Below are positions 2,749-21,324 of a stretch of 21,360 nucleotides of DNA, in pieces. Position 1 is the first letter of the stretch, and every line of letters starts with the position of its first letter. The notes beneath the pieces were generated by a model that made no database searches, was not told where the DNA came from, and saw nothing but the letters and a program-made list of their open reading frames with translations. The DNA comes from Candidatus Heimdallarchaeota archaeon (lineage in GTDB: Archaea > Asgardarchaeota > Heimdallarchaeia > JABLTI01). The position numbers and the translations under genes are program-made. Where the stretch lies: assembly GCA_019058275.1 (NCBI GenBank), contig JAHLVW010000011.1, positions 1-21,360 on the forward strand, read 5' to 3'.

Positions 2749-5700
2749 TTAATTGAATGCTCTATATCTATATTCACCTTTTACTTCAATTTTCTGGTTT
2801 TCATTAATATAATAAAGTGATAGTTTCTCCCATTCATTACAAAAAATCTCAGCATAATCCTTAATTAATTTTGAATTCTCTAAGATGTCATAATCATCAG
2901 ATAAATAATCTATTATTTCATCTGAAACGAAAACAATAACCTTTGCTTTTGCTCTAGAAATAGTGACATTAAATCTATTCAAACTCATTATGAATTCATC
3001 CTCATCTCGAATTATATCTGGATCTCCTAAACAATATGATGCTATTATTATATCCCTCTCTTGTCCCTGAAATCTATCAACAGTATCTACAGCATCTCTA
3101 ATTAGAGATGGTTCATAATCTTCTTCTCCCTCAAATGCTCTTTGTAATAGATTAATTATTAAACCTTGTTGTGCTCTGTGTGGCGTAACAACTCCAATTC
3201 CTTTTTCCCAAAATTCTTTGAATGAATATATTTCATTACTTGGTATAATTTCATCATTTGTCAAGGGATTAATTTGATTTAATAAATCCTTTTTTAGATA
3301 ACCATATAAATGACGAATTAATGCTGTTATTGAATTAGCTTCAAATTGATTCCATTGACCACTTCTACCATCAGGATAAACAAAACAAGCAACTGGTTTA
3401 GTTGGATCAAGCAAAAGATTCCATTTATCAGTCCAATACAATTCATCATTCCAATTGATAGGTTTTTCATATGGTAATTCATTAATATTTAACATCAAGT
3501 TAGGTGAAAAGCTTTCTAATCGTTCAAGATAACCCGCATTAAATGAAAAATCGACAATTATTCTATTTGATCTGTAGTTTATATCTAACATTTTCTCTTC
3601 TAAATTGTGATAATCTTTATAGTAAGAATAGATAGAACCTACAAAATTTTCAAAGTCCAAAGGTGGTTTAACTTTGTGTATAGGTGGAAGTTGTTTTAAA
3701 TCTCCAGCAAGAACTAATGAACCTCCATTTGAAACTGAGCATAATGAGAGAATTGCACTTGACACATCCATCTGAGTTGCTTCATCAATTATTATAATGT
3801 CAAATAATTCATTTAAATATCTCTCATTACCTACTTTCATTAAATTGTAAATTTGGCTTGGTGTTGAAGCAATTACATGTATACTATTATTATTCACTAA
3901 TTCATTGAATAGATTTCTCAAGCGTTTTTTGGAACTTTGAGAAGATCCATCATATGCTAAATCAACATCACTTTCCATAGGTGGTTGACTATGAATTGAT
4001 CTTAATCTATATATTTGACAATCAGTTTCAGGTAAATTACTTTTTATAAAAACATTAACATACTTGAAAACATTATCAATCGCTTTGTAATTGGCTGAGC
4101 AGATTAGAATTCTCTTATTTTCGTTTTGGTTATGTGCCAAAATAACAGAACCTATTGCAATTCCTTGTAAAGTACGACTTTTACCTGTTCCAGGTGGTCC
4201 CCATATCAATTGAATTCTTTTGGACATAGCATCTTCCCAAGCTTCCCATTGTGTATTATTTAAATTAAAACTAGAATTCACAATCTGATCTTTTATCATA
4301 GACAAATCTCTTGATAATAAAGTAGTTGCTGTTTCTTGAACATTCCAAATGAAATCGACTGGTGGACTTATCTGAGAAATCCTAGCTCCACGCGTATTTA
4401 TTTGCCCAGTTATTTGTAATAATCTTTCATCTGAATCTCTATATGGTCTTCCAATTGCTCTTAAACAATCTTTTAATTTTCCTGTAAAGAAATCTAGGAA
4501 TTTTGGATCCAGTAAAACATTAATATTTAGGTTTGCTAGATTATAATTCTCAATCTCATCCAGAGAAATTCCTCTATTGTTATGTTCAACTACAATGATT
4601 AGATTTTCTCGATCTATGGCTTTTATTGTAACTCCAGTTAAATCTTCCATTCGAGAATTCAATAAACGATTATCAAAAAGACTCATTAATGTTTGATTAC
4701 CATGAATAAATCTAATTAACTTACTATTAAGAAAACTTTGATTATTTTCCGGTGCTAGGGCAAAATTAAAGTCACCTTCACGTAGTTTAACTTCTTTTGA
4801 AGTTTCTCTCATTCTATAAATTCTTATGTTTTCATTTTCTTCTATCTGTAATTCCTCAAGAATTATATTAGCTTCTCTACCAACTATTCTATTAACTAAT
4901 CTAGCACTTCGAAATTTAGCTTCTCGCATATGAGGTGGCATTGCTCTAATTCTATGTACCTCTAATTCATTGAAGGCATAATTCAATTTTTGATGTAAGA
5001 ACCAAAGATTGCCCTCAGGACTCATTCTTGGTATTGTTCTTGGAGGACGAATTGCTATTGTTGGAGCTTTTTGATATAGTGTTTGTCTTATATCAGTTTC
5101 CAATCGAGAAACAATAGTTTCCAAAGCTGATATCTTTTTAGTTACAGTTTCTCTAACTATATCTAATTGATTAGCCCAATATGGTTGAATTGTTCTGGTC
5201 CAAATTTCATGTGCTCTCTCTGATGGTATTTGATTGCTAAGGGGGTCTTCAAATAATGGATGTACTCTAAAACGAGCAATGTTTTCAGAAAGATCATGTC
5301 TATGATAATTCCTTGCTGTATCAAAGATATTATAATAATGAGGAATTGGTACCGCAAGATGTGAATTTATAACATCGGATAAAATTGTTAGGGGGGATCT
5401 TCTTGTTACAGTCTCCCAATTTTGTAATATTTCTTCAGGAGGAAACAACCATAAAAGATTATTCAAACCGTCTTGATTCATTAAAGCATCTAAATGTCTA
5501 CTTATTATTCGAGTTAAATGATTATATTGTGTTTTATCCCAGATGTAAATTTGATATGTGGTATCTTGATTAAATCTTCGAGCTTCAGATAATATATTAT
5601 CTAAAGTATCTAGAAAATTTATAAATTCTCTTCTCTCAATATTGGTATCTCTCTGGTCTATTCTAAAGACATGAGCTCCTCGTTGTGGCCATGAATGAAA

Positions 5701-7080
5701 ATTTTCTGTACTTTGTCCATATTCCGTAGGTTCTCTCCAAAATGCTTTCAAACCTATTGCAAAAGTAATTGCACTGGAAATATCAAAATCTATCGAAATA
5801 TAGATTCGCAAGTCAGCCCATTTAGGCATTTCAGCAGAGCTTCTATTTTCCATAACAATATTGATTTCATTGTTTTCTAGTGATGAAGCTCTTGCGGGAA
5901 TTATATCTCGATTTTCTCTCAATTTTTGATGTAATTTGTAGATTTCATCCTCACCTTCTCTCTCTAATAATTCACTTACATTACTAATATCAGTATCCTC
6001 TTCCAATGACTTTCTCGCTCCTACAGAAATCCCAAATATTCTTGAAAGATGATTTTCATTCTTTGCTTTAATTAAACAGTGATTATCATTGTATATTGGT
6101 TCACTTTTCCATGAAAAGCCAAGGTAATTACAATTTTTACATCTATTATCAACATGATAGTCTAAATCTTCCCAATTTGTAATTATAATATCAGGTAAAT
6201 CTTCAAGGAAAAATTTTTTTATTCTGACTGCAAAAACCTCAAATGGTACAATTTCTAAATCCTCTTCAAAAGCTGCGTATAGTTCCTCATAGTTCGGCTG
6301 TCTACCTTCTTCATCAATAATTCTTATTCTACATTTAATCAAATTAGAAGCTTCATGGGATCCAGACCATATTGAACCTTCAGGTATTACAACAAATTTA
6401 TCATCCAAATTATTATCAATAAGCCAACCAGATAAAGCCATCATATAGTAAGCTACTTCAGCAAGATAACTTTTAGAAGGATTTGCAGTTACTTTTATAT
6501 CAATTACTCTTAATTGCAATCTATCATCATTTTCTTGTAATCTTTTAACCTCACCATTTGGTGTAATGTACCTTTTGTAAGTACCTGCTGAAATTATATG
6601 TATGATATCTGGTCTAATTTCACTAAAATCTAAATTGAATAATTCTTTATAAGAAGATATTCCTAAGTCATCAAGAAATTTCTGTGATACGTCAAATTGT
6701 TGCTCTACTAAAAAAAGATCAGCACTTGCATTAGTTAATCCTATTTCTAATTCCATTTTATTATATTTGATTTCATTTTCTTCGATAGTTGCTGGATTTC
6801 CAATAATCTGTTCAGATCCAAATATTTCTCTCAAATCTGCTAATTTAGCTATCTCCCATCTTTTACCCTCTTTTCGAAATTGATCTAATCCTGGTCTTGG
6901 ATCTTGTTCAGGAGGTATTCCTTGTGTTTCTCTTTCATGTCTATATTTTTTATTATTTGGTGACAGATTGAATTTTAGTTGTCTTTTGCATTCAGTTCTT
7001 AAGTATTTTGATAAACATTCTTTCCTAAATAATGGCATAAAACTACTTCCATTTCCTTTTCTAATGATAATAATATTCAT
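2749..7080 (-). CDS. Cas4/RecB-like PD-(D/E)xK nuclease fused to Dna2/Upf1-type superfamily 1 helicase (TM0106/Dna2-like architecture)
   Basis: N-terminal IRPDII...VIDIK...EVAYY nuclease motifs with Cys residues (ECKRQ...CKNC...HC) in the Fe-S staple layout. A central RNase H-like segment (IYISIDFD) follows. SF1 motifs are complete: Q-motif LNNTQ, GPPGTGKS, IIIDEATQ, GDLKQLPP, NYRS, VTPHRAQ, TVDRFQGQERD, RFNVTISRAK. An alternative start is the ATG at 7038 (MPLFRK), preceded by AAGGAAATGGAAG. Confidence 0.88.
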   Translation of the reverse strand: MNIIIIRKGNGSSFMPLFRKECLSKYLRTECKRQLKFNLSPNNKKYRHERETQGIPPEQDPRPGLDQFRKEGKRWEIAKLADLREIFGSEQIIGNPATIEENEIKYNKMELEIGLTNASADLFLVEQQFDVSQKFLDDLGISSYKELFNLDFSEIRPDIIHIISAGTYKRYITPNGEVKRLQENDDRLQLRVIDIKVTANPSKSYLAEVAYYMMALSGWLIDNNLDDKFVVIPEGSIWSGSHEASNLIKCRIRIIDEEGRQPNYEELYAAFEEDLEIVPFEVFAVRIKKFFLEDLPDIIITNWEDLDYHVDNRCKNCNYLGFSWKSEPIYNDNHCLIKAKNENHLSRIFGISVGARKSLEEDTDISNVSELLEREGEDEIYKLHQKLRENRDIIPARASSLENNEINIVMENRSSAEMPKWADLRIYISIDFDISSAITFAIGLKAFWREPTEYGQSTENFHSWPQRGAHVFRIDQRDTNIERREFINFLDTLDNILSEARRFNQDTTYQIYIWDKTQYNHLTRIISRHLDALMNQDGLNNLLWLFPPEEILQNWETVTRRSPLTILSDVINSHLAVPIPHYYNIFDTARNYHRHDLSENIARFRVHPLFEDPLSNQIPSERAHEIWTRTIQPYWANQLDIVRETVTKKISALETIVSRLETDIRQTLYQKAPTIAIRPPRTIPRMSPEGNLWFLHQKLNYAFNELEVHRIRAMPPHMREAKFRSARLVNRIVGREANIILEELQIEENENIRIYRMRETSKEVKLREGDFNFALAPENNQSFLNSKLIRFIHGNQTLMSLFDNRLLNSRMEDLTGVTIKAIDRENLIIVVEHNNRGISLDEIENYNLANLNINVLLDPKFLDFFTGKLKDCLRAIGRPYRDSDERLLQITGQINTRGARISQISPPVDFIWNVQETATTLLSRDLSMIKDQIVNSSFNLNNTQWEAWEDAMSKRIQLIWGPPGTGKSRTLQGIAIGSVILAHNQNENKRILICSANYKAIDNVFKYVNVFIKSNLPETDCQIYRLRSIHSQPPMESDVDLAYDGSSQSSKKRLRNLFNELVNNNSIHVIASTPSQIYNLMKVGNERYLNELFDIIIIDEATQMDVSSAILSLCSVSNGGSLVLAGDLKQLPPIHKVKPPLDFENFVGSIYSYYKDYHNLEEKMLDINYRSNRIIVDFSFNAGYLERLESFSPNLMLNINELPYEKPINWNDELYWTDKWNLLLDPTKPVACFVYPDGRSGQWNQFEANSITALIRHLYGYLKKDLLNQINPLTNDEIIPSNEIYSFKEFWEKGIGVVTPHRAQQGLIINLLQRAFEGEEDYEPSLIRDAVDTVDRFQGQERDIIIASYCLGDPDIIRDEDEFIMSLNRFNVTISRAKAKVIVFVSDEIIDYLSDDYDILENSKLIKDYAEIFCNEWEKLSLYYINENQKIEVKGEYRYRAFN

Positions 7081-7146
7081 TAATATTAGAAATCTTTCCT
7101 TTTAATAGATAAAAATCTTTAGAAATGTAAATTGGAATGTAGATTA

Positions 7147-8883
7147 TCATAACTCATTATAAAAATCAATTAAATCAGGAATTTTTTCCATTAATTCAAA
7201 ATCTGATTTGCTTATATAAGTGTTAGTATTTACTGTAATTGTATCCTTTTTTCTTTCAGAAAACACAAATAACAGATCTAAATATATTTTTCTTTTAGAA
7301 ATTTTACCACTACTTTCTCCCATTACAGGATAAATACAATCTAGATTATAATCTAGTGTTTTGAATATCTCAAGGAAATTTCTAATTATGTAGAGATTTG
7401 TATGATGATAAGTAACTATGATTTGACTATCATAAGAAAGCTTGGTTTTAATTTTTGAAAAAATCTCTGTTAGCATTAGTTTATATTTATCTAGGGATTT
7501 TTTATCTCTCATTACTACTTCTTTTTCTACTAAATTGTTCAAACCTTCTTTATCAACTTCTCTTAATAGTGCAAGATTAAATAATGATAAATCAGAGTAA
7601 TATTGGAAATCTGCATAAGGAGGATCTGTGAATACAATATCGAATTTCACATTAATATCATTTAGAATATCTTGTGAAGGTCCATGAAATAGATTAAAAT
7701 TAAAGTTATATTCTTCCGAATTCATTTTGGCTTTTACTATTTTGTTAAAAGCTGAAATTATATTCCCTCTTCCTAAAGGTTGAAGCTTGTTTTTTACAAT
7801 ATATGAATTTGGATTCAATTCAGTTGGTTGTTTTGGTAACCAATAACTCTTAATTGTAAATCCTGGTATTATTTTTCGATAAATGTTTGAATAATAAGCT
7901 AAAAAAGAACATGATCTTAATGCATTTGAAACAACAATCCTTGATATTTCTCTATAAGGGGTTTTATCAAAGTAATCCAAAAATTGTTCAAATGTTATCT
8001 TTTGCCTATTAGATAATAATTCTCCGAAATCGTTGAATCCATGTTTCAATAGTCTATTTGTTTCATTTAAATTGGGAATTTCCATAAAATTTTTCTTATA
8101 ATCAAAATCATTACAATAAAATAATAGTGTTTCTTCATCGCTAATTTTCTTAATTTCCCTAGAATTACATTTTGAGCAATAATATTCTATAGCAAAAGGT
8201 ATGATTTTATTATATTCAAAATCTTCATATTCTTTGTTAAATAAATTATCACAAATTGGACATCTTTCTAAATTTATTTGATTTTTAAAAATTCCTTTGC
8301 ATACTTCACAAAAATAAATTGACTCCTTATTTCCCCTTTTAATTTCATTGTATTTGATTTGCATTTCATTATCATTATTAACCCATGATAGAAAAGTGTG
8401 AATTATTGTAGATTCGTGTTCTTTCTTGCATTTTGTAGACCATAACATTTTGTTGTTCAATCTAGAAAAAACTAAAATTTCCCTTTCCAATTCGTTTAGA
8501 TTTATTTTATTTAATTCCTTATAAGAAGAGACAATATTATAAGCTAGTTTGTTTATTTCTATGCCATAAGAATTGAAACCTAGTAATCCACTTTCCAATA
8601 AAATTGTTCCACCTCCACAAAAAGGATCTAAAAGGGTTTTGCTTTTATACTTTGGTGGATTGTAATATTTCTCAGATACAAATTCATTATAATCTGTAAT
8701 TTCCTTTAAGGTTTTTAATTCCATTTGAGAGTATATCAAAAACAATCTAACAATTCCAGAATATCGTCTAGCCCACCATTTGTGAATTTCATAAATGGGT
8801 TTTCTTCTGCTCCACTCGAGATTTTTGGCAAAATCATTTGTAGCATCTAGAAGATTCTTTGGAATTCTGTCAATTATTTTCAT
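7147..8883 (-). CDS. DNA amino-methyltransferase (N6-adenine or N4-cytosine) with Zn-ribbon, DUF1156-like
   Basis: IHKWWARR signature of DUF1156-type methylases, SAM-binding LDPFCGGG, Cys/His pairs (CKKEH, CEVC, CPIC, CSKC) and catalytic FTDPPY. Confidence 0.88.
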   Translation of the reverse strand: MKIIDRIPKNLLDATNDFAKNLEWSRRKPIYEIHKWWARRYSGIVRLFLIYSQMELKTLKEITDYNEFVSEKYYNPPKYKSKTLLDPFCGGGTILLESGLLGFNSYGIEINKLAYNIVSSYKELNKINLNELEREILVFSRLNNKMLWSTKCKKEHESTIIHTFLSWVNNDNEMQIKYNEIKRGNKESIYFCEVCKGIFKNQINLERCPICDNLFNKEYEDFEYNKIIPFAIEYYCSKCNSREIKKISDEETLLFYCNDFDYKKNFMEIPNLNETNRLLKHGFNDFGELLSNRQKITFEQFLDYFDKTPYREISRIVVSNALRSCSFLAYYSNIYRKIIPGFTIKSYWLPKQPTELNPNSYIVKNKLQPLGRGNIISAFNKIVKAKMNSEEYNFNFNLFHGPSQDILNDINVKFDIVFTDPPYADFQYYSDLSLFNLALLREVDKEGLNNLVEKEVVMRDKKSLDKYKLMLTEIFSKIKTKLSYDSQIIVTYHHTNLYIIRNFLEIFKTLDYNLDCIYPVMGESSGKISKRKIYLDLLFVFSERKKDTITVNTNTYISKSDFELMEKIPDLIDFYNEL

Positions 8884-8943
8884 ATTGTTTAATAGAATAT
8901 TATTATAGATTAAATTTTTTACTAGAGTAGCTTGATATAAGTA

Positions 8944-11136
8944 TTATAGAAACCAAGGTTTTTCTACCCATTTTTCTAATGGAGCTGATTCTAGATTAGA
9001 TAATACCAAGCATTTCTCTGCATATTTTAATGTACATGGAAATTTCGATTTTGATTTTGTATAACCCAAATGCATTCGAGATAAAAGAAATGTTGTTTCT
9101 ATATCTTCATGCTCTAGATTAGCATTTACTTTCGTTATCTTTATTGGTTCTGGCATCCTATCCTCAATCATTTCTGATGTAGTAACAAGAATAGCTTTTT
9201 TTCCTGACTCTAGAAATAAATATGTTCCATCATCGGGTTTCTTATTTTCTTTTTGAGAATATATTCTTTCATAATAACTTCGTGTTATAACAAAAACATC
9301 ATTAAACGAATTACAAAACTCATGTTCGAAAGGATACAAAATACCTCTTTTGTGCAGAATGATTTTTTCATTTCTTATTATTGGTCTAATATTACTATTA
9401 TAATTAATTTTCAATTTAGTAATATAATCACTTTTATCTTCAGGATTAAATTTGCCAGTAAAACTACCTCTAAATGATCCTTTAGGTGAAATTAAAATCA
9501 TACTGTAAGTTCCATTCCAGAAATTAGATTGTAATCCTAAAAACCAAGAGTTTAAATCTTTATTTAAAACCCATGCAATTCCTCCAGCTTTTGAATAAAT
9601 ACCAAGTGAAGTTTCATTAATATGATTGCTAAAAGGTATATCTTGATTAACATTTAATCCCTGAACATTGATATTGAGCTTATGGCATTCTCTCTTAATC
9701 TCTCTTAACCACTTATAGTCATCTTCATCATCCATTATTGCTAAAACTATATTCGTTTCTAGTTCTCTTATATCTTTTAGTTTATCAAAGTAATAATAAT
9801 CAGTTTTGACATTAAAATTTTGAATCAATCGATTCTTAATGGAATTAACATATCTTGCTGGATTTTTCGATAAATGTCTTCTACTTTTAATAATTCCTAG
9901 ATTTATATTTGATAACTGGTTATCAAAATCTGAAATTGTGAATCTATTTTTTAAAATGAATTTAAACGGATCTAGCACCTCACTTAGTTTATTATCTATT
10001 TTTATTGTATATTTTGGTTGTTTAATTTTAATTAGTGGTTTTTTAAGAAAAGTCTTTTCAGTGAAAAATCTCATTCCACTGGGCGAAGCAACTAGATTTT
10101 TAAGATTTTCAATACTGTCTTTGTATCTTTTTTTAGGAGTGGCATGCAATATATTTGTAATCTTCTTTCGATCTTCATATTCCCTTATTATTTTCCTATC
10201 TATTTTTATTTGACGTCTAAGTCTTTCGGGTACAAATGTGTAAGTTCCACCTCCTCTTTTGGTTTCAATTAAAGGGGTTTCATTCTTTATTTTTGGTTCT
10301 TGATCTTCTGCTTTTAATTTATTAAAAAAAAGACAATCCTTAAAACTATAATCATAATAATTATGGATTATTCCTTTTCGATCAGTAAAAGTTGCATCTT
10401 TAGGTTTTTCCATTATGAATTTTTCAAACTTATAACCACTTCTTTTGAAATTAATTGGAGACAAAGTACATTCTCCATTTTTTAGAAATAGACATTCATA
10501 TTTGGAACATGTTTGAAATAAATATTCATTCTTGAGATTTCTTTCAAGTGTTTCTAAATCTTCTAACCCGTATTCATTAATTTCATCTCGTAATGTAAAT
10601 TTAGAAAAAAACTTATGACGTGTATCTACAAAAACATAAGGTTCACCATCTCTTCCTTGGTAAACCTTAAACGTAAATCCTGGATAAAGTACTATTTTTT
10701 GAAAAATAATTGGTTTGTGTTGATATACTTCAATATCTACAACTTTTTCTAATTCTTGAGTACTAATAGCGGTTGGACTTCTTCTGCTTGGAATAATATA
10801 GAAATTGGAATTCCTAAGTGAATATTTTAAGCAATTAGTTATAAAATTGATTTTGTTTTCCTCATAATCATAAGGATCCTTTTCTTTTCTCAAGCTATTG
10901 CCTAGAATCTTCCTTATTTCGTCTTCTAAATTTTCAAAGTAATATAGAGTATGTATATGTGTTTGATTATTAATTATAATATCAATTTTGAATCTATCTG
11001 AAATTGTCTTTATTAAGTTTAATCCTTCAGAATAGTCCTTCTGACTAAAATCAAGGAAAAACTTTTTTATTGTTAATCTTTCTACACTAGCAAAATTTAT
11101 TCTGGATGAATTTAAGAATACCATTTCTTGACTCAT
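8944..11136 (-). CDS. ago: Long prokaryotic Argonaute (PIWI-domain protein), predicted catalytically inactive
   Basis: L1-like YPGFTFKV...VFVDTRHKF; PAZ-like NYYDY...PLI...YTFVPERL; MID EIKR...INVQGL...LGIYSKAGGIAWVL; PIWI RIY...PDDGTY, PEPIKI, LLSRMH, FPCTLKYAEK; C-terminal PWFL. Catalytic Asp positions are replaced (GLQ536S instead of GxD; HKR597G instead of HRDG). SD GGGGAG upstream; ATGA overlap with the preceding gene. Confidence 0.85.
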   Translation of the reverse strand: MSQEMVFLNSSRINFASVERLTIKKFFLDFSQKDYSEGLNLIKTISDRFKIDIIINNQTHIHTLYYFENLEDEIRKILGNSLRKEKDPYDYEENKINFITNCLKYSLRNSNFYIIPSRRSPTAISTQELEKVVDIEVYQHKPIIFQKIVLYPGFTFKVYQGRDGEPYVFVDTRHKFFSKFTLRDEINEYGLEDLETLERNLKNEYLFQTCSKYECLFLKNGECTLSPINFKRSGYKFEKFIMEKPKDATFTDRKGIIHNYYDYSFKDCLFFNKLKAEDQEPKIKNETPLIETKRGGGTYTFVPERLRRQIKIDRKIIREYEDRKKITNILHATPKKRYKDSIENLKNLVASPSGMRFFTEKTFLKKPLIKIKQPKYTIKIDNKLSEVLDPFKFILKNRFTISDFDNQLSNINLGIIKSRRHLSKNPARYVNSIKNRLIQNFNVKTDYYYFDKLKDIRELETNIVLAIMDDEDDYKWLREIKRECHKLNINVQGLNVNQDIPFSNHINETSLGIYSKAGGIAWVLNKDLNSWFLGLQSNFWNGTYSMILISPKGSFRGSFTGKFNPEDKSDYITKLKINYNSNIRPIIRNEKIILHKRGILYPFEHEFCNSFNDVFVITRSYYERIYSQKENKKPDDGTYLFLESGKKAILVTTSEMIEDRMPEPIKITKVNANLEHEDIETTFLLSRMHLGYTKSKSKFPCTLKYAEKCLVLSNLESAPLEKWVEKPWFL

Positions 11137-12071
11137 TCAAATTTCTCCCCTTTAATTTCAATGTAATTAACTGGTTTTTCATTATAGTATTCTTCTATAA
11201 TTTTATCTAGTTTTCCTATCATATCATTATCAATTAACCAGTTTTCAATATCAAACAATGAATTCAAAACATCATTATTAGAATTAACTATCAATAGAGA
11301 TTCTCTGATGTCAAAAATAACATTCAGGAAAATCAGCCCAAAAAGCTGCTTTGTTTTTTTCAATTTTCTTATTTGCTCTAATTTTCTATTCAATTCATCA
11401 AAATTTAGTTCTTTAACGAATTTTAAAGATATTATAATCTCTATTATAAGTACATCTGACTTTAATTCTATAATTAATTGTGTTTTGAATAAGTCTTCGA
11501 TATTTAAACTAACATAGTTTTTTATCATTCTTATACAACTAATCTCATCTTCATGCTTTGAGAGAATTGGACTTCTTTTGTAATTCTTCCTTATTAATAA
11601 TTTAATTAATTTTTTTTGTAAATTCACCAATTCTTTTGTTTTATTTTCAAATCTAATTTCTTTAGAGAAGAATAATCCTGGTTCTTTTAAATTTGAACTT
11701 TCATAATAGAAATCAGTAATATATTCTAAAAATAATTCTCCAACTGAAGTAATAATATATTTCTTGATTTTTTTAGAACTATCTTTTTCAGATATTACAA
11801 TCAGTTCTTGGTTCAGTAATTCTCTCAAGTGATAATTCAGCATATTAGCATTAATGCTTTTTAGTTTTGATGTAAAATCCGTTTTATTAATATGATCTAA
11901 TTGAACTTTTCTTTCTATTATCTTAGCCAAATCTTTCGGAGATAAACCTTCATTTTTGCTATTCTTCAAGCTTTTTAAAATTTCAAATCTCCATATAGTG
12001 GATTCGCCACCCAAACTTGAGAATAGTTTTGATATTCTTTGATACATTTTACTACTCAATTCTATTTTCAC
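11133..12071 (-). CDS. Winged helix-turn-helix (ArsR-like) DNA-binding protein with uncharacterised C-terminal domain
   Basis: LFSSLGG...WRFEILKSL...GLSPKDLAK...NMLNYHLRELLNQELI...KKYIITSVGE is an ArsR-type wHTH pattern with an insertion between the helices. The annotated GTG is part of a GGTGA SD-like motif, so the true start may be TTG 12059 or ATG 12047. Confidence 0.75.
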   Translation of the reverse strand: MKIELSSKMYQRISKLFSSLGGESTIWRFEILKSLKNSKNEGLSPKDLAKIIERKVQLDHINKTDFTSKLKSINANMLNYHLRELLNQELIVISEKDSSKKIKKYIITSVGELFLEYITDFYYESSNLKEPGLFFSKEIRFENKTKELVNLQKKLIKLLIRKNYKRSPILSKHEDEISCIRMIKNYVSLNIEDLFKTQLIIELKSDVLIIEIIISLKFVKELNFDELNRKLEQIRKLKKTKQLFGLIFLNVIFDIRESLLIVNSNNDVLNSLFDIENWLIDNDMIGKLDKIIEEYYNEKPVNYIEIKGEKFE

Positions 12072-12202
12072 CTTAAAACTTTATACACAAAATATTTTAT
12101 TGAAAAACTAGAAAATAAATCTTTCGTGAAAATTTTTTCACATAATGCATTTTAATAAAAAGTGATATTGTTATCATAAATAAAGGAGTTGATTGAGTAA
12201 AA
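12072..12202. promoter_or_regulatory. Divergent promoter region with two candidate palindromic operators
   Basis: Perfect inverted repeat GTGAAAA-tt-TTTTCAC at 12126-12141 and TGATA-N4-TATCA at 12163-12176. BRE/TATA-like GAAAGA-TTTATTTT on the minus strand (12125-12112), TTTAATA on the plus strand (12151-12157) and SD AAGGAG at 12183-12188. Confidence 0.6.
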
Positions 12203-14482
12203 ATGTATTCAAATCTCTTCATATCAAAAAGTGAACCATTGAAAGAGCTTGTTGTCGACTACTATCATTTAGTAGGTGAGATTTCTCCAAATGATTTTTA
12301 CCGAATTATAAAAGGAGCAGAGAAGCATCTCTATAATCTTGGATTTTGTGTTTCAACTTTTAAAGATAAATTAGTCTTTTTAGATGAAATGACAAAACGA
12401 CCACCACCAGAATTTAGTATTGGTAGCTATAAATTCAAGTTAGCTAAAGATAAAATGAAACTCACTTCTGACAAACATGCATACCTTTTTTCAAATCTAG
12501 TTTTTTGTTCGCTAAAATTTAGAGCATATAAGAACGGTTATATTGGACCAGAAAGTCAGAAATTCTTTAGAAAACGACCTTTCAAGGTAGATTACTTAGC
12601 ATATCATGATGCTTTTGAATATGATGTAGTGGTTTTTAATGATGGTAGAGTTGGAATTTGGCTTGATCCGACAACTAGATGGAAACAAAGTGTCCAGAAT
12701 TTCCTTACTTGGTCTAAAAAACAGGAATTATCCCAGGATGAAATAAAGGAAGCGCTAATAGGTAAGATTGTAAAATGCCCAAGTCCTGGAAAGAAAGATT
12801 ATAGAGCCAAAATAGTTGATGTTTGTTATAAATCTATAAGTGAGTACAATATAAAAGCTAATGGCATAGAAACAACTGTATATGATTATTGGATATCAGT
12901 TAGCCCTAAACATAAGAATTGGTTAGATAAGAAATCAATACAATTGGATCCTAATGAAAAACCAGTTATAACAGTACAAATGATAGGTTTAGATTTTAGA
13001 CCTTCATTCCCTTCATCATTACTTAATCTCGTAATAGACATAAATGATCCACTTATTCCAAGAACTGCTTTATCTCAAAAGAAAATCTTGAAACCAAGAA
13101 TCCGTATTAATGAAACAAAAAAATTATTTGATTTAATTATCAAAGATGGTTTATTACTAGGAAAGTATAAACTTGATTTTAATCATGAGCTAATTGACTG
13201 GACAAAAAAGGGCAAAGAATATGCTAGAGTAAAACCGTTACCTTCACCTGATATTCAATTTGGAAACGAACAGATTATTAAATCTGATAGCCCATTTCAA
13301 GAGATTGATAGAAAAATTGCTTCTGCATTAAGAGAATATGGACCAGTTTCTCAAATCGAGAAATTATGTATAAATTACATTGTACCTAGTGATATTCAAG
13401 ATAAAATTGAGTCTTTTCATGAGACACTTAACAATGTTAGTAAGGAGTTTAAGCTTGCAGATTTAACACTTGGTGAAGTTAAAGCTATTGATAGACTTCA
13501 TCCTGATAGATATTTGCGAGAATCTAAACAACTAATGAACTCAAATGATCTTACTGTTGTTATACTTCCAGAAACTCAAACGACAAAAGCTTACATTTCA
13601 GCTAAGAGAGGTTTAGGTGAAAAACTAATTAGCAGTCAAATGCTGGAGTTTTCTACATTCAGCAAAATTGTAAGCAATCCTCAAAGTATGAGTTATACTT
13701 TATCAAATATAGTGGCTCAGATATACGATAAATCATTAGATCCTGGTGAATCAATTTGGCATCTTGCTAAACCAGCAGGTAGATTGGATCCAAAGAAAGT
13801 TATCTATTTTATGGGGTTTGATGTTTCAAGAGCTCCAGAAAAACGAAAAGAAGCTGCTGCTTATGCAGCAGTATGTGATCCATATGGTAGAATGCTATAC
13901 AGAAAAGCAATTGATACACACAAAGGTGAAAAAATACAAGCTAAAGTGTTAAGTGATTGGTTTTTTGATGTTGCTAGTTCAACATTTGATGAATCAAAAG
14001 AAACAAAGAAAATTGACTGTTTAATATTGTTCAAAGATGGCCCAATACAAAGTAATCAAGTTATTGATTATAAAAATGGTGCATTAGATGCAAAGAATAG
14101 ACTTGTAAAAGAAGGAATTATGGAAGAAAATTGTGATATAAAAGTTGTTTCTGTTATTAAGAAAGGTCCACATAGAATTTATGGTAAGGAAAGATTTGAC
14201 TATAGTACACAAAACACCTCAGTAATTTGGAATGAAAAAAAAGCCTTAATTGTAACAGCTAAAGCACATCAAGGTACATCTGCAGCAATTAGGATTAATT
14301 TAGATTTTCAAATAAATGAAGATATGATAATCGACCAAGTTATACAAATCTTCAATGATCTTAGATATCTTGATTGGAGTTCGCTTTATAAACAACCAAA
14401 GACCATTCTTCCATTGCACATAGTACAGAACTTAGCGAAGCTAAGTGCACATGATATTAATGTGCCATATATACCTAGGTAG
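12203..14482 (+). CDS. ago: Long prokaryotic Argonaute (N-L1-PAZ-L2-MID-PIWI) with near-intact catalytic tetrad
   Basis: L1 AFEYDV...IWLDPTTR; full PAZ (TVYDYW...IQL..NEKPVITV...FPSSLL); MID 5'-phosphate pocket Y464-K468-Q479-K510; PIWI GFD540VS, GE576K, FKD612G, KKGPHRI, LPLHIVQ742NLAK. Confidence 0.92.
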   Translation: MYSNLFISKSEPLKELVVDYYHLVGEISPNDFYRIIKGAEKHLYNLGFCVSTFKDKLVFLDEMTKRPPPEFSIGSYKFKLAKDKMKLTSDKHAYLFSNLVFCSLKFRAYKNGYIGPESQKFFRKRPFKVDYLAYHDAFEYDVVVFNDGRVGIWLDPTTRWKQSVQNFLTWSKKQELSQDEIKEALIGKIVKCPSPGKKDYRAKIVDVCYKSISEYNIKANGIETTVYDYWISVSPKHKNWLDKKSIQLDPNEKPVITVQMIGLDFRPSFPSSLLNLVIDINDPLIPRTALSQKKILKPRIRINETKKLFDLIIKDGLLLGKYKLDFNHELIDWTKKGKEYARVKPLPSPDIQFGNEQIIKSDSPFQEIDRKIASALREYGPVSQIEKLCINYIVPSDIQDKIESFHETLNNVSKEFKLADLTLGEVKAIDRLHPDRYLRESKQLMNSNDLTVVILPETQTTKAYISAKRGLGEKLISSQMLEFSTFSKIVSNPQSMSYTLSNIVAQIYDKSLDPGESIWHLAKPAGRLDPKKVIYFMGFDVSRAPEKRKEAAAYAAVCDPYGRMLYRKAIDTHKGEKIQAKVLSDWFFDVASSTFDESKETKKIDCLILFKDGPIQSNQVIDYKNGALDAKNRLVKEGIMEENCDIKVVSVIKKGPHRIYGKERFDYSTQNTSVIWNEKKALIVTAKAHQGTSAAIRINLDFQINEDMIIDQVIQIFNDLRYLDWSSLYKQPKTILPLHIVQNLAKLSAHDINVPYIPR

Positions 14483-18608: not shown

Positions 18609-19802
18609 ATGCAAAAAAGTAAATCTAGTATTGAAAGTATCTTTTCGAGAAATATTGAGATTTATTCACTTATAGGGTGGTTTATAGTAGAAAGAAATCA
18701 TGAAACACTTGATTATATAAGAATACTGTTGGATATTATCAAATATTATGGATCAATATCAGCTAAGCAAATAGCCAGTAAATTTGGTTTGGAAGATCGA
18801 ATCTCTAACAACCTTCTTCTTTCACTTAACAGGACATATCCAAATCTTTTGAGTGTTGAAGAAAAAAACACTCAAAACTATTTTTCGATAAATCAAGATT
18901 ATAAGGAAGATGATTTCAAATCTATTGTTGAAGAAATAGAAATGAAACTTCAATTTGGGATATGTATTGAACCTTTATTTTTCGTTGACAGATTTATACG
19001 TCCAGATAAAGATATTGAGTATAAATCAATTATAGATACAGAACAGATTGTTGATACGCTTAATCAAATTATCTCTAATACAAATAATAATTTAGATGAG
19101 GATTCTATAACTCTACCTGATCATCTTCGATTTCAATCTAATAAAGGTGCATACCTACAAGGTAAAACTATAGGTCAACTTGTTTTTAATGAACAACATG
19201 AGTTTGATGTTTATATAAAAGACAAATTTTTCAATATAACAATAACTAAAACACATCCTGACTATTCAAAATTTATTGAAGAGCTTGAAGAAATAAAAAA
19301 CCAAGCTGATTCAATTGATGCTCAAATTACTAATGAATTAGAGAAAATACTTGGAAAAATAAATTATAATTATAATATTAATTTGGATTCTGGTATTCTT
19401 ATTATTAATATAACAGAGGATAGAAATGAATATATTGGAATAGTCATGAATTTGTTGAAGCTCTATGAACAGAAGATTTTCGAAATTCAATTGAATAATT
19501 ATTGGACATTAAATTTAAACATAGAAGTGAATGTAGAGAACAAAAGTATTCAAAGTACAATTCTGTTTTTTAATATTTTTTTAGAGGATATTGATAAAAA
19601 CTTTGAAAGTATGTTGAAATTGAAACGCAATAAAATTTTGAATTATGTTAACAAGGTTTGGAAAAAATCCAATAAGAATTCAAATTATGTATGGTCTAAA
19701 AAAGCCTTACTTAATCATGTAAAGTTGATACAAGATCAAAATTATTCAATTTTAATGAATTATATTTATGGGAAATTTATGGAGGAAATTATTTTTGTCT
19801 AA
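18609..19802 (+). CDS. Uncharacterised protein with probable N-terminal winged-helix domain
   Basis: Long ORF 5 nt after the helicase stop. ILLDIIKYYGSISAKQIASKFGLEDRISNNLLLSL is an HTH-like pattern. Confidence 0.55.
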   Translation: MQKSKSSIESIFSRNIEIYSLIGWFIVERNHETLDYIRILLDIIKYYGSISAKQIASKFGLEDRISNNLLLSLNRTYPNLLSVEEKNTQNYFSINQDYKEDDFKSIVEEIEMKLQFGICIEPLFFVDRFIRPDKDIEYKSIIDTEQIVDTLNQIISNTNNNLDEDSITLPDHLRFQSNKGAYLQGKTIGQLVFNEQHEFDVYIKDKFFNITITKTHPDYSKFIEELEEIKNQADSIDAQITNELEKILGKINYNYNINLDSGILIINITEDRNEYIGIVMNLLKLYEQKIFEIQLNNYWTLNLNIEVNVENKSIQSTILFFNIFLEDIDKNFESMLKLKRNKILNYVNKVWKKSNKNSNYVWSKKALLNHVKLIQDQNYSILMNYIYGKFMEEIIFV

Positions 19803-21324
19803 CTATCAACTTGAAGAATTACTTTTTTATCATACTATTTCTTACTCAAGTCAAGTTAAAACTTCAAAATCTCAAAAACTAAATCAATTACCGATTTTCA
19901 ATAAAAATGATAATTTTGAACTTCTGATGGTTCATAAGGATGTTTCTGATGAAAGGTCATTATCAGCCAGTATTTTTAAAATGATTGATTTAGCTATTGA
20001 AAACGATAGTTTTCTCTTAATATCTAGTTACTATTTCAATAATTATGAAATAATCAATGCTCTAAAGCAAGCTTGTATTAAACTTAAAGGTAAAATCTAC
20101 ATTCTTGTTGGAGATGAATATGCTTTAAATGATTCAATAAATAGAGAAGGCGAGATCATACCAGAAGGCTTGATTGATTTAGCTAGAAATGGTGCACAAA
20201 TTAGAAAGAAAGTCGGCGCTCATCTAAAGTTTATTGTTTCTGGTGAAAAATGTATAATCATGTCTACAAATCTTACAACTGAAGGATTATTTGTGAATCC
20301 TGAATATGGAATTGTAATTGATAAGAATAATCCAATATTTGAATCATTAAAAATTTTATTTTCCAATTTATGGCATCAAAAAAGTGAGGTTTTACTAAAT
20401 GATAGGGGATGGATTAATGCTCCAAACTGGAATGTATATGGAAAAAAACTATCTAAAATAAAACCACTTTTTCCAAAACTTATTCTTTCATCAAATAGTA
20501 TCATTAATGAAATAAATTCCTATTCTGAAATTGTAAATCCTAATAGCTTATTCGATGAAATCACTTCGCTTCTTATAAATGCGAATGAATTAATAGAAAT
20601 TTCAATATATTCTTTGGTTAATAAACCTGATAATCAAATAAACAAGATATATGAAATCTTAATAGATAAATCTGGTAAAATCAATGTTCACATTCTTGTT
20701 CCTCAAATAAAATTACGAAATCAAAGATCACAGAAGATGTTGGAAGCTCTAGATAAACTGCTTGATGCTGGTGCTGAAATTCGATTTTATAGAGAGTTAC
20801 ATGGAAAAATAATTATTGTAGATAAAAAAGAAGCATTATTTCTAACAGGGAACTTAGATGAATATTTAGTGGAAGATAACTCTTATGACATTGGTTGTTT
20901 TTTAACTAATCATATTCTTGTTGACAATATAAGGAAATTGTACAATCATTTATGGGAAGAAGCTTCAGACTTAATTGAACCTAACAGAAATCTAAAGCTA
21001 AAAGTAAATTTAGTAATAGAATCCCAAGATTATCTCAGTTCCATTAAACCAATTCCTGTTTTTGAATTAGAAAATAGAATAAAGAAAAGTCCACTAATCA
21101 GATTATTCTATACTGATGAAAAATCTTTGCTTCAAATAACGGATAAAAAAGGTGGTAGCTACTCAATCGAAATCTTACATTCTGAGGAAAAAAATATTGA
21201 TGGTGAATTTATTTTTATTAAAGGAGTAATAAATCAGAAATGGAGTAAATTCAATAAAAGGAATTCTAAAGAGTATATATTGGAACAATTAAGATTAAAC
21301 ATGTACTGGAAGGATATTGTATAA
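19768..21324 (+). CDS. Phospholipase D-family nuclease with two HKD-type domains
   Basis: HLKFIVSGEKCIIMSTNLT and HGKIIIVDKKEALFLTGNL, each preceded by an ISxY strand (ISSYYF, ISIYSL). The likely true start is TTG at 19795 after SD GGAGG (19781-19785), overlapping the upstream stop. Confidence 0.85.
   Translation: MGNLWRKLFLSNYQLEELLFYHTISYSSQVKTSKSQKLNQLPIFNKNDNFELLMVHKDVSDERSLSASIFKMIDLAIENDSFLLISSYYFNNYEIINALKQACIKLKGKIYILVGDEYALNDSINREGEIIPEGLIDLARNGAQIRKKVGAHLKFIVSGEKCIIMSTNLTTEGLFVNPEYGIVIDKNNPIFESLKILFSNLWHQKSEVLLNDRGWINAPNWNVYGKKLSKIKPLFPKLILSSNSIINEINSYSEIVNPNSLFDEITSLLINANELIEISIYSLVNKPDNQINKIYEILIDKSGKINVHILVPQIKLRNQRSQKMLEALDKLLDAGAEIRFYRELHGKIIIVDKKEALFLTGNLDEYLVEDNSYDIGCFLTNHILVDNIRKLYNHLWEEASDLIEPNRNLKLKVNLVIESQDYLSSIKPIPVFELENRIKKSPLIRLFYTDEKSLLQITDKKGGSYSIEILHSEEKNIDGEFIFIKGVINQKWSKFNKRNSKEYILEQLRLNMYWKDIV

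Follow-up and report, generated by a model that had tools for sequence, protein, structure and literature searches.

Canonical DUF1156 methylases are the protective methylases of systems related to bacteriophage exclusion (BREX), in which they accompany helicase-nuclease effectors (PMC12839542; 10.64898/2026.09.23.753747). The DUF499-centred members of this group (Hma; type 2, known as MANTIS or Gao_RL) combine a DUF499 ATPase, a DUF1156 N6-adenine methylase and a helicase-nuclease. MANTIS hemimethylates asymmetric 6-bp sites and restricts DNA through its helicase-nuclease, and its methylase MtsC does not bind DNA alone, as the DUF499 ATPase is required (10.64898/2026.09.23.753747). Here we describe a locus of Candidatus Heimdallarchaeota archaeon in which a gene for a compact methylase of this type (MT578) lies between the genes for a long Argonaute (AGO730) and a nuclease-helicase fusion (HEL1443). 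The window analysed is the whole 21,360-nt contig (C103; JAHLVW010000011.1) of an archaeal metagenome-assembled genome. Comparison with homologous loci makes it moderately probable that MT578 and HEL1443 constitute a two-gene restriction-modification-like module, separate from the Argonaute, in an archaeal defence island. MT578 most likely belongs with HEL1443 because the pairing recurs in unrelated bacteria that lack an Argonaute.

The methylase and the nuclease-helicase

MT578 (7147-8883, minus strand) is an intact open reading frame of 578 amino acids (aa) that encodes a compact DUF1156-like N6/N4 amino-methyltransferase. Together with the Argonaute frame at 8944-11136, it bears out a preliminary description of the window, which had noted a compact amino-methyltransferase of this length 60 nt downstream of an Argonaute. 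The protein carries motif I (DPFCGGGT, residues 86-93), motif IV (TDPPY, residues 419-423) and an N-terminal helical domain with the HKWWARR sequence that marks the DUF1156 family. The two motifs are separated by a beta-rich insert that carries three Cys pairs (C192/C195, C208/C211, C236/C239), plus C152 and H156, predicted to form two Zn sites. These motifs and Cys/His residues are invariant or almost so among 31 relatives, and MT578 retains all of the more than 80 invariant columns of its clade. A Pfam search with the single sequence returned generic methylase motifs only, PF06634 not reaching E 0.01, and a single-sequence PDB search was uninformative. Profile comparison by hhalign of the MT578 family with 17 PF06634-bearing proteins gave a probability of 100% (E 2e-67, 540 columns, from column 12), with motif I, motif IV and the intervening Cys pairs in the same columns as in the canonical members. 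The alignment does not continue past about position 654 of the 878 columns in the canonical profile, so that the canonical C-terminal part is absent. Since BREX-related methylases have a C-terminal helix-turn-helix (HTH)-like region (PMC12839542), the alignment identifies MT578 as a compact DUF1156-type methylase without that region. In its AlphaFold model (pLDDT 90.2, pTM 0.88), the Rossmann core resembles the N6-adenine DNA methylases CamA, M.TaqI, HsdM and M.BseCI, as well as the tRNA m6A methylase TrmM; these matches are confined to about 200 columns. DNA N6-adenine is a likely substrate because the modelled core matches N6-adenine DNA methylases.

HEL1443 (2749-7080, minus strand) is encoded just downstream of MT578 on the same strand and joins a Cas4/Dna2-like PD-(D/E)xK nuclease to a superfamily 1 (SF1) helicase. 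Residues 930-1400 form an intact helicase of the Upf1/Dna2-like type (GPPGTGKS, DEATQ, VDRFQGQERD), which matches AAA_11/AAA_12 at E 1e-21, that is, SF1; Walker A, Walker B and motif VI are all intact. By its N-terminal 930 aa, HEL1443 belongs to a large family with more than 140 clusters (1420-1470 aa, 38-47% identity), whose few named members are bacterial (Rubrobacter, Phycisphaerae, Gemmataceae) and whose remainder comes mostly from metagenomes. Identity between HEL1443 and the homologues in loci L097, L099, L100, L131, L132, L138 and L139 is 45-47% across residues 9-1440, and D158, D194-x-K196 and Cys31/314/317/335 are invariant in an alignment of nine sequences. All eight homologues begin with MP(x)L at the column of M15, and the true start is therefore probably M15 (window position 7038), the first 14 listed codons not being translated.

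Searches with the HEL1443 N-terminus gave no Pfam or PDB sequence match, the nine-sequence profile included, and Foldseek matches were weak (best E 0.012). The structural model is confident for residues 70-300 and of low confidence for residues 300-520. An exhaustive structural aligner placed Cas4 at the top for the nuclease region (Z 8.9 and 8.1), followed by MGME1, Dna2, Exo5, RecE, archaeal Cas4 proteins, AddB and AdnAB; the Z values are middling, but the ranked proteins form a consistent set that fits the motifs. The N-terminus is thus modelled as a Cas4/Dna2-like PD-(D/E)xK nuclease domain fused to the motor. The middle region is conserved, has a fold without known match and contains DxD and YxWD motifs; it is a candidate RNase H-like region, in a part of the model with low confidence (residues 300-520). 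No PADLOC or NCBIfam model matched HEL1443 or MT578 over the full length, in a scan that did not extend to the bacterial partner methylases.

These results bear on the earlier statement that the window holds no DUF499 ATPase, no SNF2 helicase and no classical restriction endonuclease. The first two absences hold: no SNF2 gene occurs in the window, and a search for DUF499 (PF04465) in the window and the 92.8%-complete genome came back empty, with positive controls in Thermus and Thermotoga. The third needs qualifying, since the structural matches and the motifs agree: with HEL1443 the window has a restriction-type nuclease joined to a motor, in addition to a PLD protein at 19768-21324.

Like Hma and MANTIS, the locus would pair a protective methylase with a motor-nuclease effector, and MT578 is homologous to their methylases over its whole length. 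Unlike them, the window lacks both the DUF499 ATPase and a DUF3780-type co-regulator, MT578 lacks the C-terminal HTH-like triad, and HEL1443 combines SF1 with an N-terminal Cas4/Dna2-like nuclease in place of an SF2/SNF2 helicase with PLD.

Genomic partners of the two families

We fetched nine loci of the HEL1443 family from bacteria and metagenomes, eight of them independent. A DUF1156-type methylase gene lies directly upstream of the HEL1443 homologue, on the same strand, in seven of the eight. It encodes a full-length MT578 homologue (E 1e-27 to 1e-31) in L097/L098, L100, L132, L138, L139 and L140, and is present but broken in L099; the eighth locus, L131, has instead a 305-aa N6_N4 methylase just downstream of the helicase. 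The methylase and helicase genes abut or overlap in these loci, and the partner methylases (690-800 aa) are 60-73% identical to each other. MT578 has the same position and strand, at 66-108 nt upstream of HEL1443, and is 21-23% identical to the usual partners.

The pair is present in Rubrobacter marinus (L100; CP045121), where neither a Piwi-family protein nor an AGO730 homologue was found in the genome, the Piwi control being positive in Thermus and Methanocaldococcus; the pair can therefore stand without an Argonaute. An Argonaute hidden Markov model (HMM) likewise found a long Argonaute in none of the nine fetched loci. This model recovers both Argonautes of the window, and it missed the pPIWI-RE of L099 and a weak Piwi protein of L092 (a relative of AGO730, see below), so that its negative counts are lower bounds. 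In L099 (7303-14347), the HEL1443 homologue is convergent to a complete pPIWI-RE module (restriction endonuclease, pPIWI_RE_Z helicase, MID/PIWI and RNase H parts). Besides the window, this is another instance of the nuclease-helicase near a PIWI-family system, and it probably reflects clustering in defence islands.

The R. marinus pair and the window share an orthologous nuclease-helicase, 45-47% identical over its full length, with a methylase directly upstream on the same strand. They differ in host, which is archaeal here, in the longer spacer of the window and in the clade of the methylase. A maximum-likelihood tree (quick search) nested MT578 in a compact archaeal clade (support 100) and placed the helicase-partner methylases in a separate clade (support 100) among the canonical DUF1156 proteins. 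Because the two methylases group apart in this way, the phylogeny identifies the pair in the window as a chimera, which has kept the methylase-then-nuclease-helicase layout with a methylase from a different, archaeal clade. The compact methylase would thus fill the slot normally held by the nuclease-helicase family's own 690-800-aa methylase. No HEL1443 orthologue was found among 400 genomes of the same phylum, which leaves no sister locus in the pre-insertion state and is consistent with horizontal arrival.

The archaeal clade has its own conserved neighbours. About 50 clusters are 41-56% identical to MT578, the named ones archaeal (Nitrososphaeria, Aenigmatarchaeota, Methanomassiliicoccales, Pyrobaculum). 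A scan of the genome collection gave seven loci, and a metagenome scan supplied the informative ones. The methylase of 14-16 fetched loci lies between a large protein (about 1590 aa) that combines a DEAD/DrmA/DpdJ-like superfamily 2 (SF2) helicase with a C-terminal PLD nuclease, and a 440-466-aa protein that matched nothing in Pfam or PADLOC. This three-gene cassette, with a 575-590-aa methylase and no DUF499, is seen at L013 (1982-9885) and also in L002, L008-L015, L018 and L019; the SF2-helicase-PLD gene is split in two in L010 and in L004/L022/L023. The cassette resembles a minimal system of the BREX-related or MANTIS type. The window resembles this cassette (DISARM-like or minimal BREX-related) in that MT578 belongs to its methylase clade, and differs in that both partner genes are missing from it (hhalign probability <5%). 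When the genome was searched by tblastn, the large partner gave generic SF2-helicase matches only, and the 450-aa protein gave none. The preliminary description was thus right that MT578 stands without its usual partners, with the refinement that in this clade they are the SF2-helicase-PLD protein and the 450-aa protein and not DUF499 and SNF2 proteins.

The absence of these partners raises the possibility that MT578 is an orphan, a remnant of a lost SF2-PLD cassette that has no functional tie to either neighbour and acts alone (for example in regulation, or to counter incoming restriction systems) or serves no function. The missing partners, in the window and in the genome, and the fact that MT578 is not of the clade that normally accompanies the nuclease-helicase agree with such a remnant. 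The gene is intact and has kept every invariant residue, though, and it occupies the exact slot filled by a methylase in seven of the eight homologous loci; toxicity would be expected from a nuclease-helicase of a methylase-linked family if no methylase gave protection. We consider a decaying or solitary MT578 distinctly unlikely.

The neighbouring Argonaute

The source genome measures 4.1 Mb (completeness 92.8%, contamination 6.8%) and carries a full-length archaeal small-subunit rRNA. The GC content of the contig is 27.8%, against 32.4% for the genome; GC at third codon positions is low throughout the window (0.165-0.24) and does not separate acquisition events, and neither flanking repeats nor tRNA genes were found when insertion marks were sought at the locus. 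The minus-strand series reads U312, AGO730, MT578, HEL1443. U312 (11133-12071, minus strand) encodes 312 aa with a winged-helix-like N-terminus, and the end of its frame shares 4 nt with the start of AGO730. AGO730 (8944-11136, minus strand) is a 730-aa long Argonaute. The spacer between AGO730 and MT578 (8884-8943, minus strand) has 60 nt, and that between MT578 and HEL1443 (7039-7146, minus strand) has 108 nt, or 66 nt if HEL1443 starts at 7080. Both are A+T-rich and TATA-like; a T5 run is present in the MT578/HEL1443 spacer and absent from the other. The sequence AAAAAATTTAAT lies about 25 nt ahead of the MT578 ATG, inside the 60-nt spacer, and an internal archaeal promoter is possible there, as is a single transcript for all four genes.

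A second Argonaute operon starts at 12203 and is divergent; it contains AGO759, RmuC and a DEDD-type exonuclease, followed by a helicase-like protein and a PLD nuclease. Paralogues of RmuC (51% identity) and of EXO181 (43% identity) occur elsewhere in the genome (C96:47583-48326 and C98:113011-113535), and Pfam found no Piwi match in the genome beyond the window. Comparison of the two Argonautes of the window showed no pairwise similarity, and single-sequence PDB searches with both were uninformative.

AGO730 alone matched no Pfam model and did match PADLOC Argonaute models; the PADLOC model name PprPIWI appears in no paper found by our literature search. A family profile of 11 members matches CpAgo and CbAgo (E 3e-82 and 2e-80, positions 106-755). 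At three of the four catalytic positions AGO730 reads GLQ, HKRG and YAEK, against GLD, HRDG and YADK in active relatives, and its two nearest relatives are likewise degenerate. The alignment thus identifies AGO730 as a long Argonaute of the CpAgo/CbAgo type that is catalytically dead, with Q, R and E in place of three residues of the DEDX tetrad, in agreement with the inactivity first proposed for it. The family is rare: an exhaustive search found 15 representatives in 1.84 billion proteins, a word-indexed protein search gave the self-match only, and the 400 genomes of the same phylum held no orthologue. A Cys cluster in the N-terminal half (10333-10509, residues ~208-268) is conserved in the family (consensus D-x-C-P-x3-C ... 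C-x-L-x-G, with D208 and C268 almost invariant) and may be a lineage-specific metal site.

In the loci of AGO730 relatives, the gene upstream of the Argonaute is usually DUF7347-like (231-269 aa); homology of U312 to these upstream genes was unsupported (hhalign probability 8.5%). The genes that follow vary: a PrimPol-like gene in L094, L142 and L143, a 599-aa protein and Cas4 in L095, and no same-strand gene in L092, the nearest dead relative with enough flank. A trio of DUF7347-like winged-helix gene, Argonaute and PrimPol-like gene (DNA_primase_S) recurs at L094 (694-4570), L142 (2370-6239) and L143 (852-4691); PrimPols associated with bacterial long-B Argonautes have been described (PMC11724360). 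The twin-Argonaute layout recurs as well. The HMM found a second Argonaute gene beside the AGO730-type gene in the window (8944-14482), L091 (2254-7453) and L141 (2407-6557), and at L092 (6336-12250) the second Argonaute rests on a weak Pfam Piwi call only; the exonuclease of L092 is 47.5% identical to EXO181 of the window. AGO730 and the gene upstream of it would form a separate unit of a twin-Argonaute locus, adjacent to the methylase and the nuclease-helicase through a common defence island.

We weighed against this the possibility that U312, AGO730, MT578 and HEL1443 form one integrated system similar to DdmDE of Vibrio cholerae, in which the guide-bound dead Argonaute would recruit the nuclease-helicase to invader DNA and the methylase would add a second layer of self-protection. 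The four genes share a strand and lie no more than 60-108 nt apart, a dead AGO730 would need an effector, Cas4-like nucleases follow AGO730 relatives in L091 and L095, and nuclease, helicase and methyltransferase genes are among those enriched near Argonaute genes (PMC6299218). An inactive Argonaute-like protein near a helicase-nuclease also recalls DdmE and DdmD, from which the window differs by the methylase between the two genes and by a helicase family linked to methylases, not to Argonautes; no Ddm model was among the PADLOC matches (E 0.01) of AGO730 or HEL1443. The homologous loci speak against such a system: the nuclease-helicase family has a methylase and no long Argonaute in all nine fetched loci, the R. 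marinus pair occurs in a genome without a detected Piwi gene, the genes downstream of the Argonaute family differ from locus to locus, being none in L092, and the four-gene arrangement was observed once. Taken together, a four-gene system is possible but unlikely.

Guidance of DNA methylation by the Argonaute, the more speculative proposal of the preliminary description, has less in its favour. A guide-loaded, non-slicing Argonaute would here be the DNA loader that MT578 lacks, with methylation at guide-complementary sites; MT578 is indeed adjacent on the same strand, the related MtsC needs a partner to load on DNA, and the genome has no DUF499. The helicase-partner methylases, however, are also without DUF499 and have no Argonaute nearby, and the conserved partners of the MT578 clade are the helicase-PLD and 450-aa proteins. 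The synteny check suggested with that proposal detected no Argonaute in 20 methylase-clade loci (181 kb), within the limits of the HMM given above, and no same-strand methylase follows the AGO730-family gene in any of eight other loci. L091 and L092 do have methylases within 10 kb, convergent ones of unrelated families (that of L091, tried as a relative of MT578, shares only the S-adenosylmethionine-binding region); they are what a defence island would give, in three loci too few for statistics. We regard Argonaute-guided methylation as extremely unlikely, and it loses most of its support because the methylase has a better-explained partner. A broader version, in which the dead Argonaute serves both the methylase and the nuclease-helicase as a loading or targeting subunit and its guides set the sites of methylation or cutting, is also very unlikely; if true, it would make the module a restriction-modification system programmed by guides in an archaeon of the Asgard lineage, and a counterpart in prokaryotes of DNA methylation directed by small RNAs.

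A proposed restriction-modification-like module

As a two-gene module separate from the Argonaute, MT578 would mark a fixed short motif of the host DNA on its adenines (or on cytosine N4), and HEL1443 would move along DNA with ATP and cut unmarked DNA through its Cas4/Dna2-like nuclease domain. The module would resemble a type III or a BREX-related (MANTIS) system in which the SF2-PLD effector has been swapped for an SF1 nuclease-helicase. It shares with type III restriction-modification (Mod, Res) the order of methylase then motor-nuclease and the PD-(D/E)xK nuclease, and by analogy hemimethylation of asymmetric sites is a plausible mode. It differs from type III in having an SF1 instead of an SF2 motor, an N-terminal Cas4-like nuclease with four Cys and a DUF1156-type instead of a Mod-type methylase. 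The literature that we searched contained no description of this two-gene module. The first proposal of the preliminary description, self-marking by methylation, is retained for the nuclease-helicase, which has the methylase upstream in most homologous loci, and found no support for the Argonaute.

Several points weigh against such a module. MT578 falls outside the methylase clade of the nuclease-helicase family, which makes the functional match of the two proteins an assumption. The gap of 66-108 nt with a T5 run, where the homologous genes abut, could mean that MT578 and HEL1443 are transcribed separately. Catalytically dead Argonautes normally depend on an effector, a role for which MT578 and HEL1443 are the sole candidates on the same strand. 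Finally, MT578 has no DUF499 partner of the kind required by the MANTIS methylase, so that another loader, or inactivity of the methylase alone, is possible. If a loader is needed, with DUF499 absent from the genome, HEL1443 would most simply be that loader, and the dead Argonaute is a speculative alternative.

Our analysis indicates that the two-gene module, rather than the link to the Argonaute, is the part of this locus worth following. Its two components are a DUF1156-type methylase and an SF1 helicase that carries a Cas4-like nuclease of the Fe-S type, and with a family of more than 140 protein clusters it is widespread. The module would extend the methylation defences of the BREX-related and MANTIS type to an SF1 motor without a DUF499 ATPase, and it bears on a question raised by MANTIS, namely what takes over the loading of a DUF1156-type methylase on DNA in systems that lack DUF499. 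The chimera in the window further shows that methylases of different DUF1156 clades can occupy the same slot, which bears on how the self-marking and restriction parts of such systems are matched.

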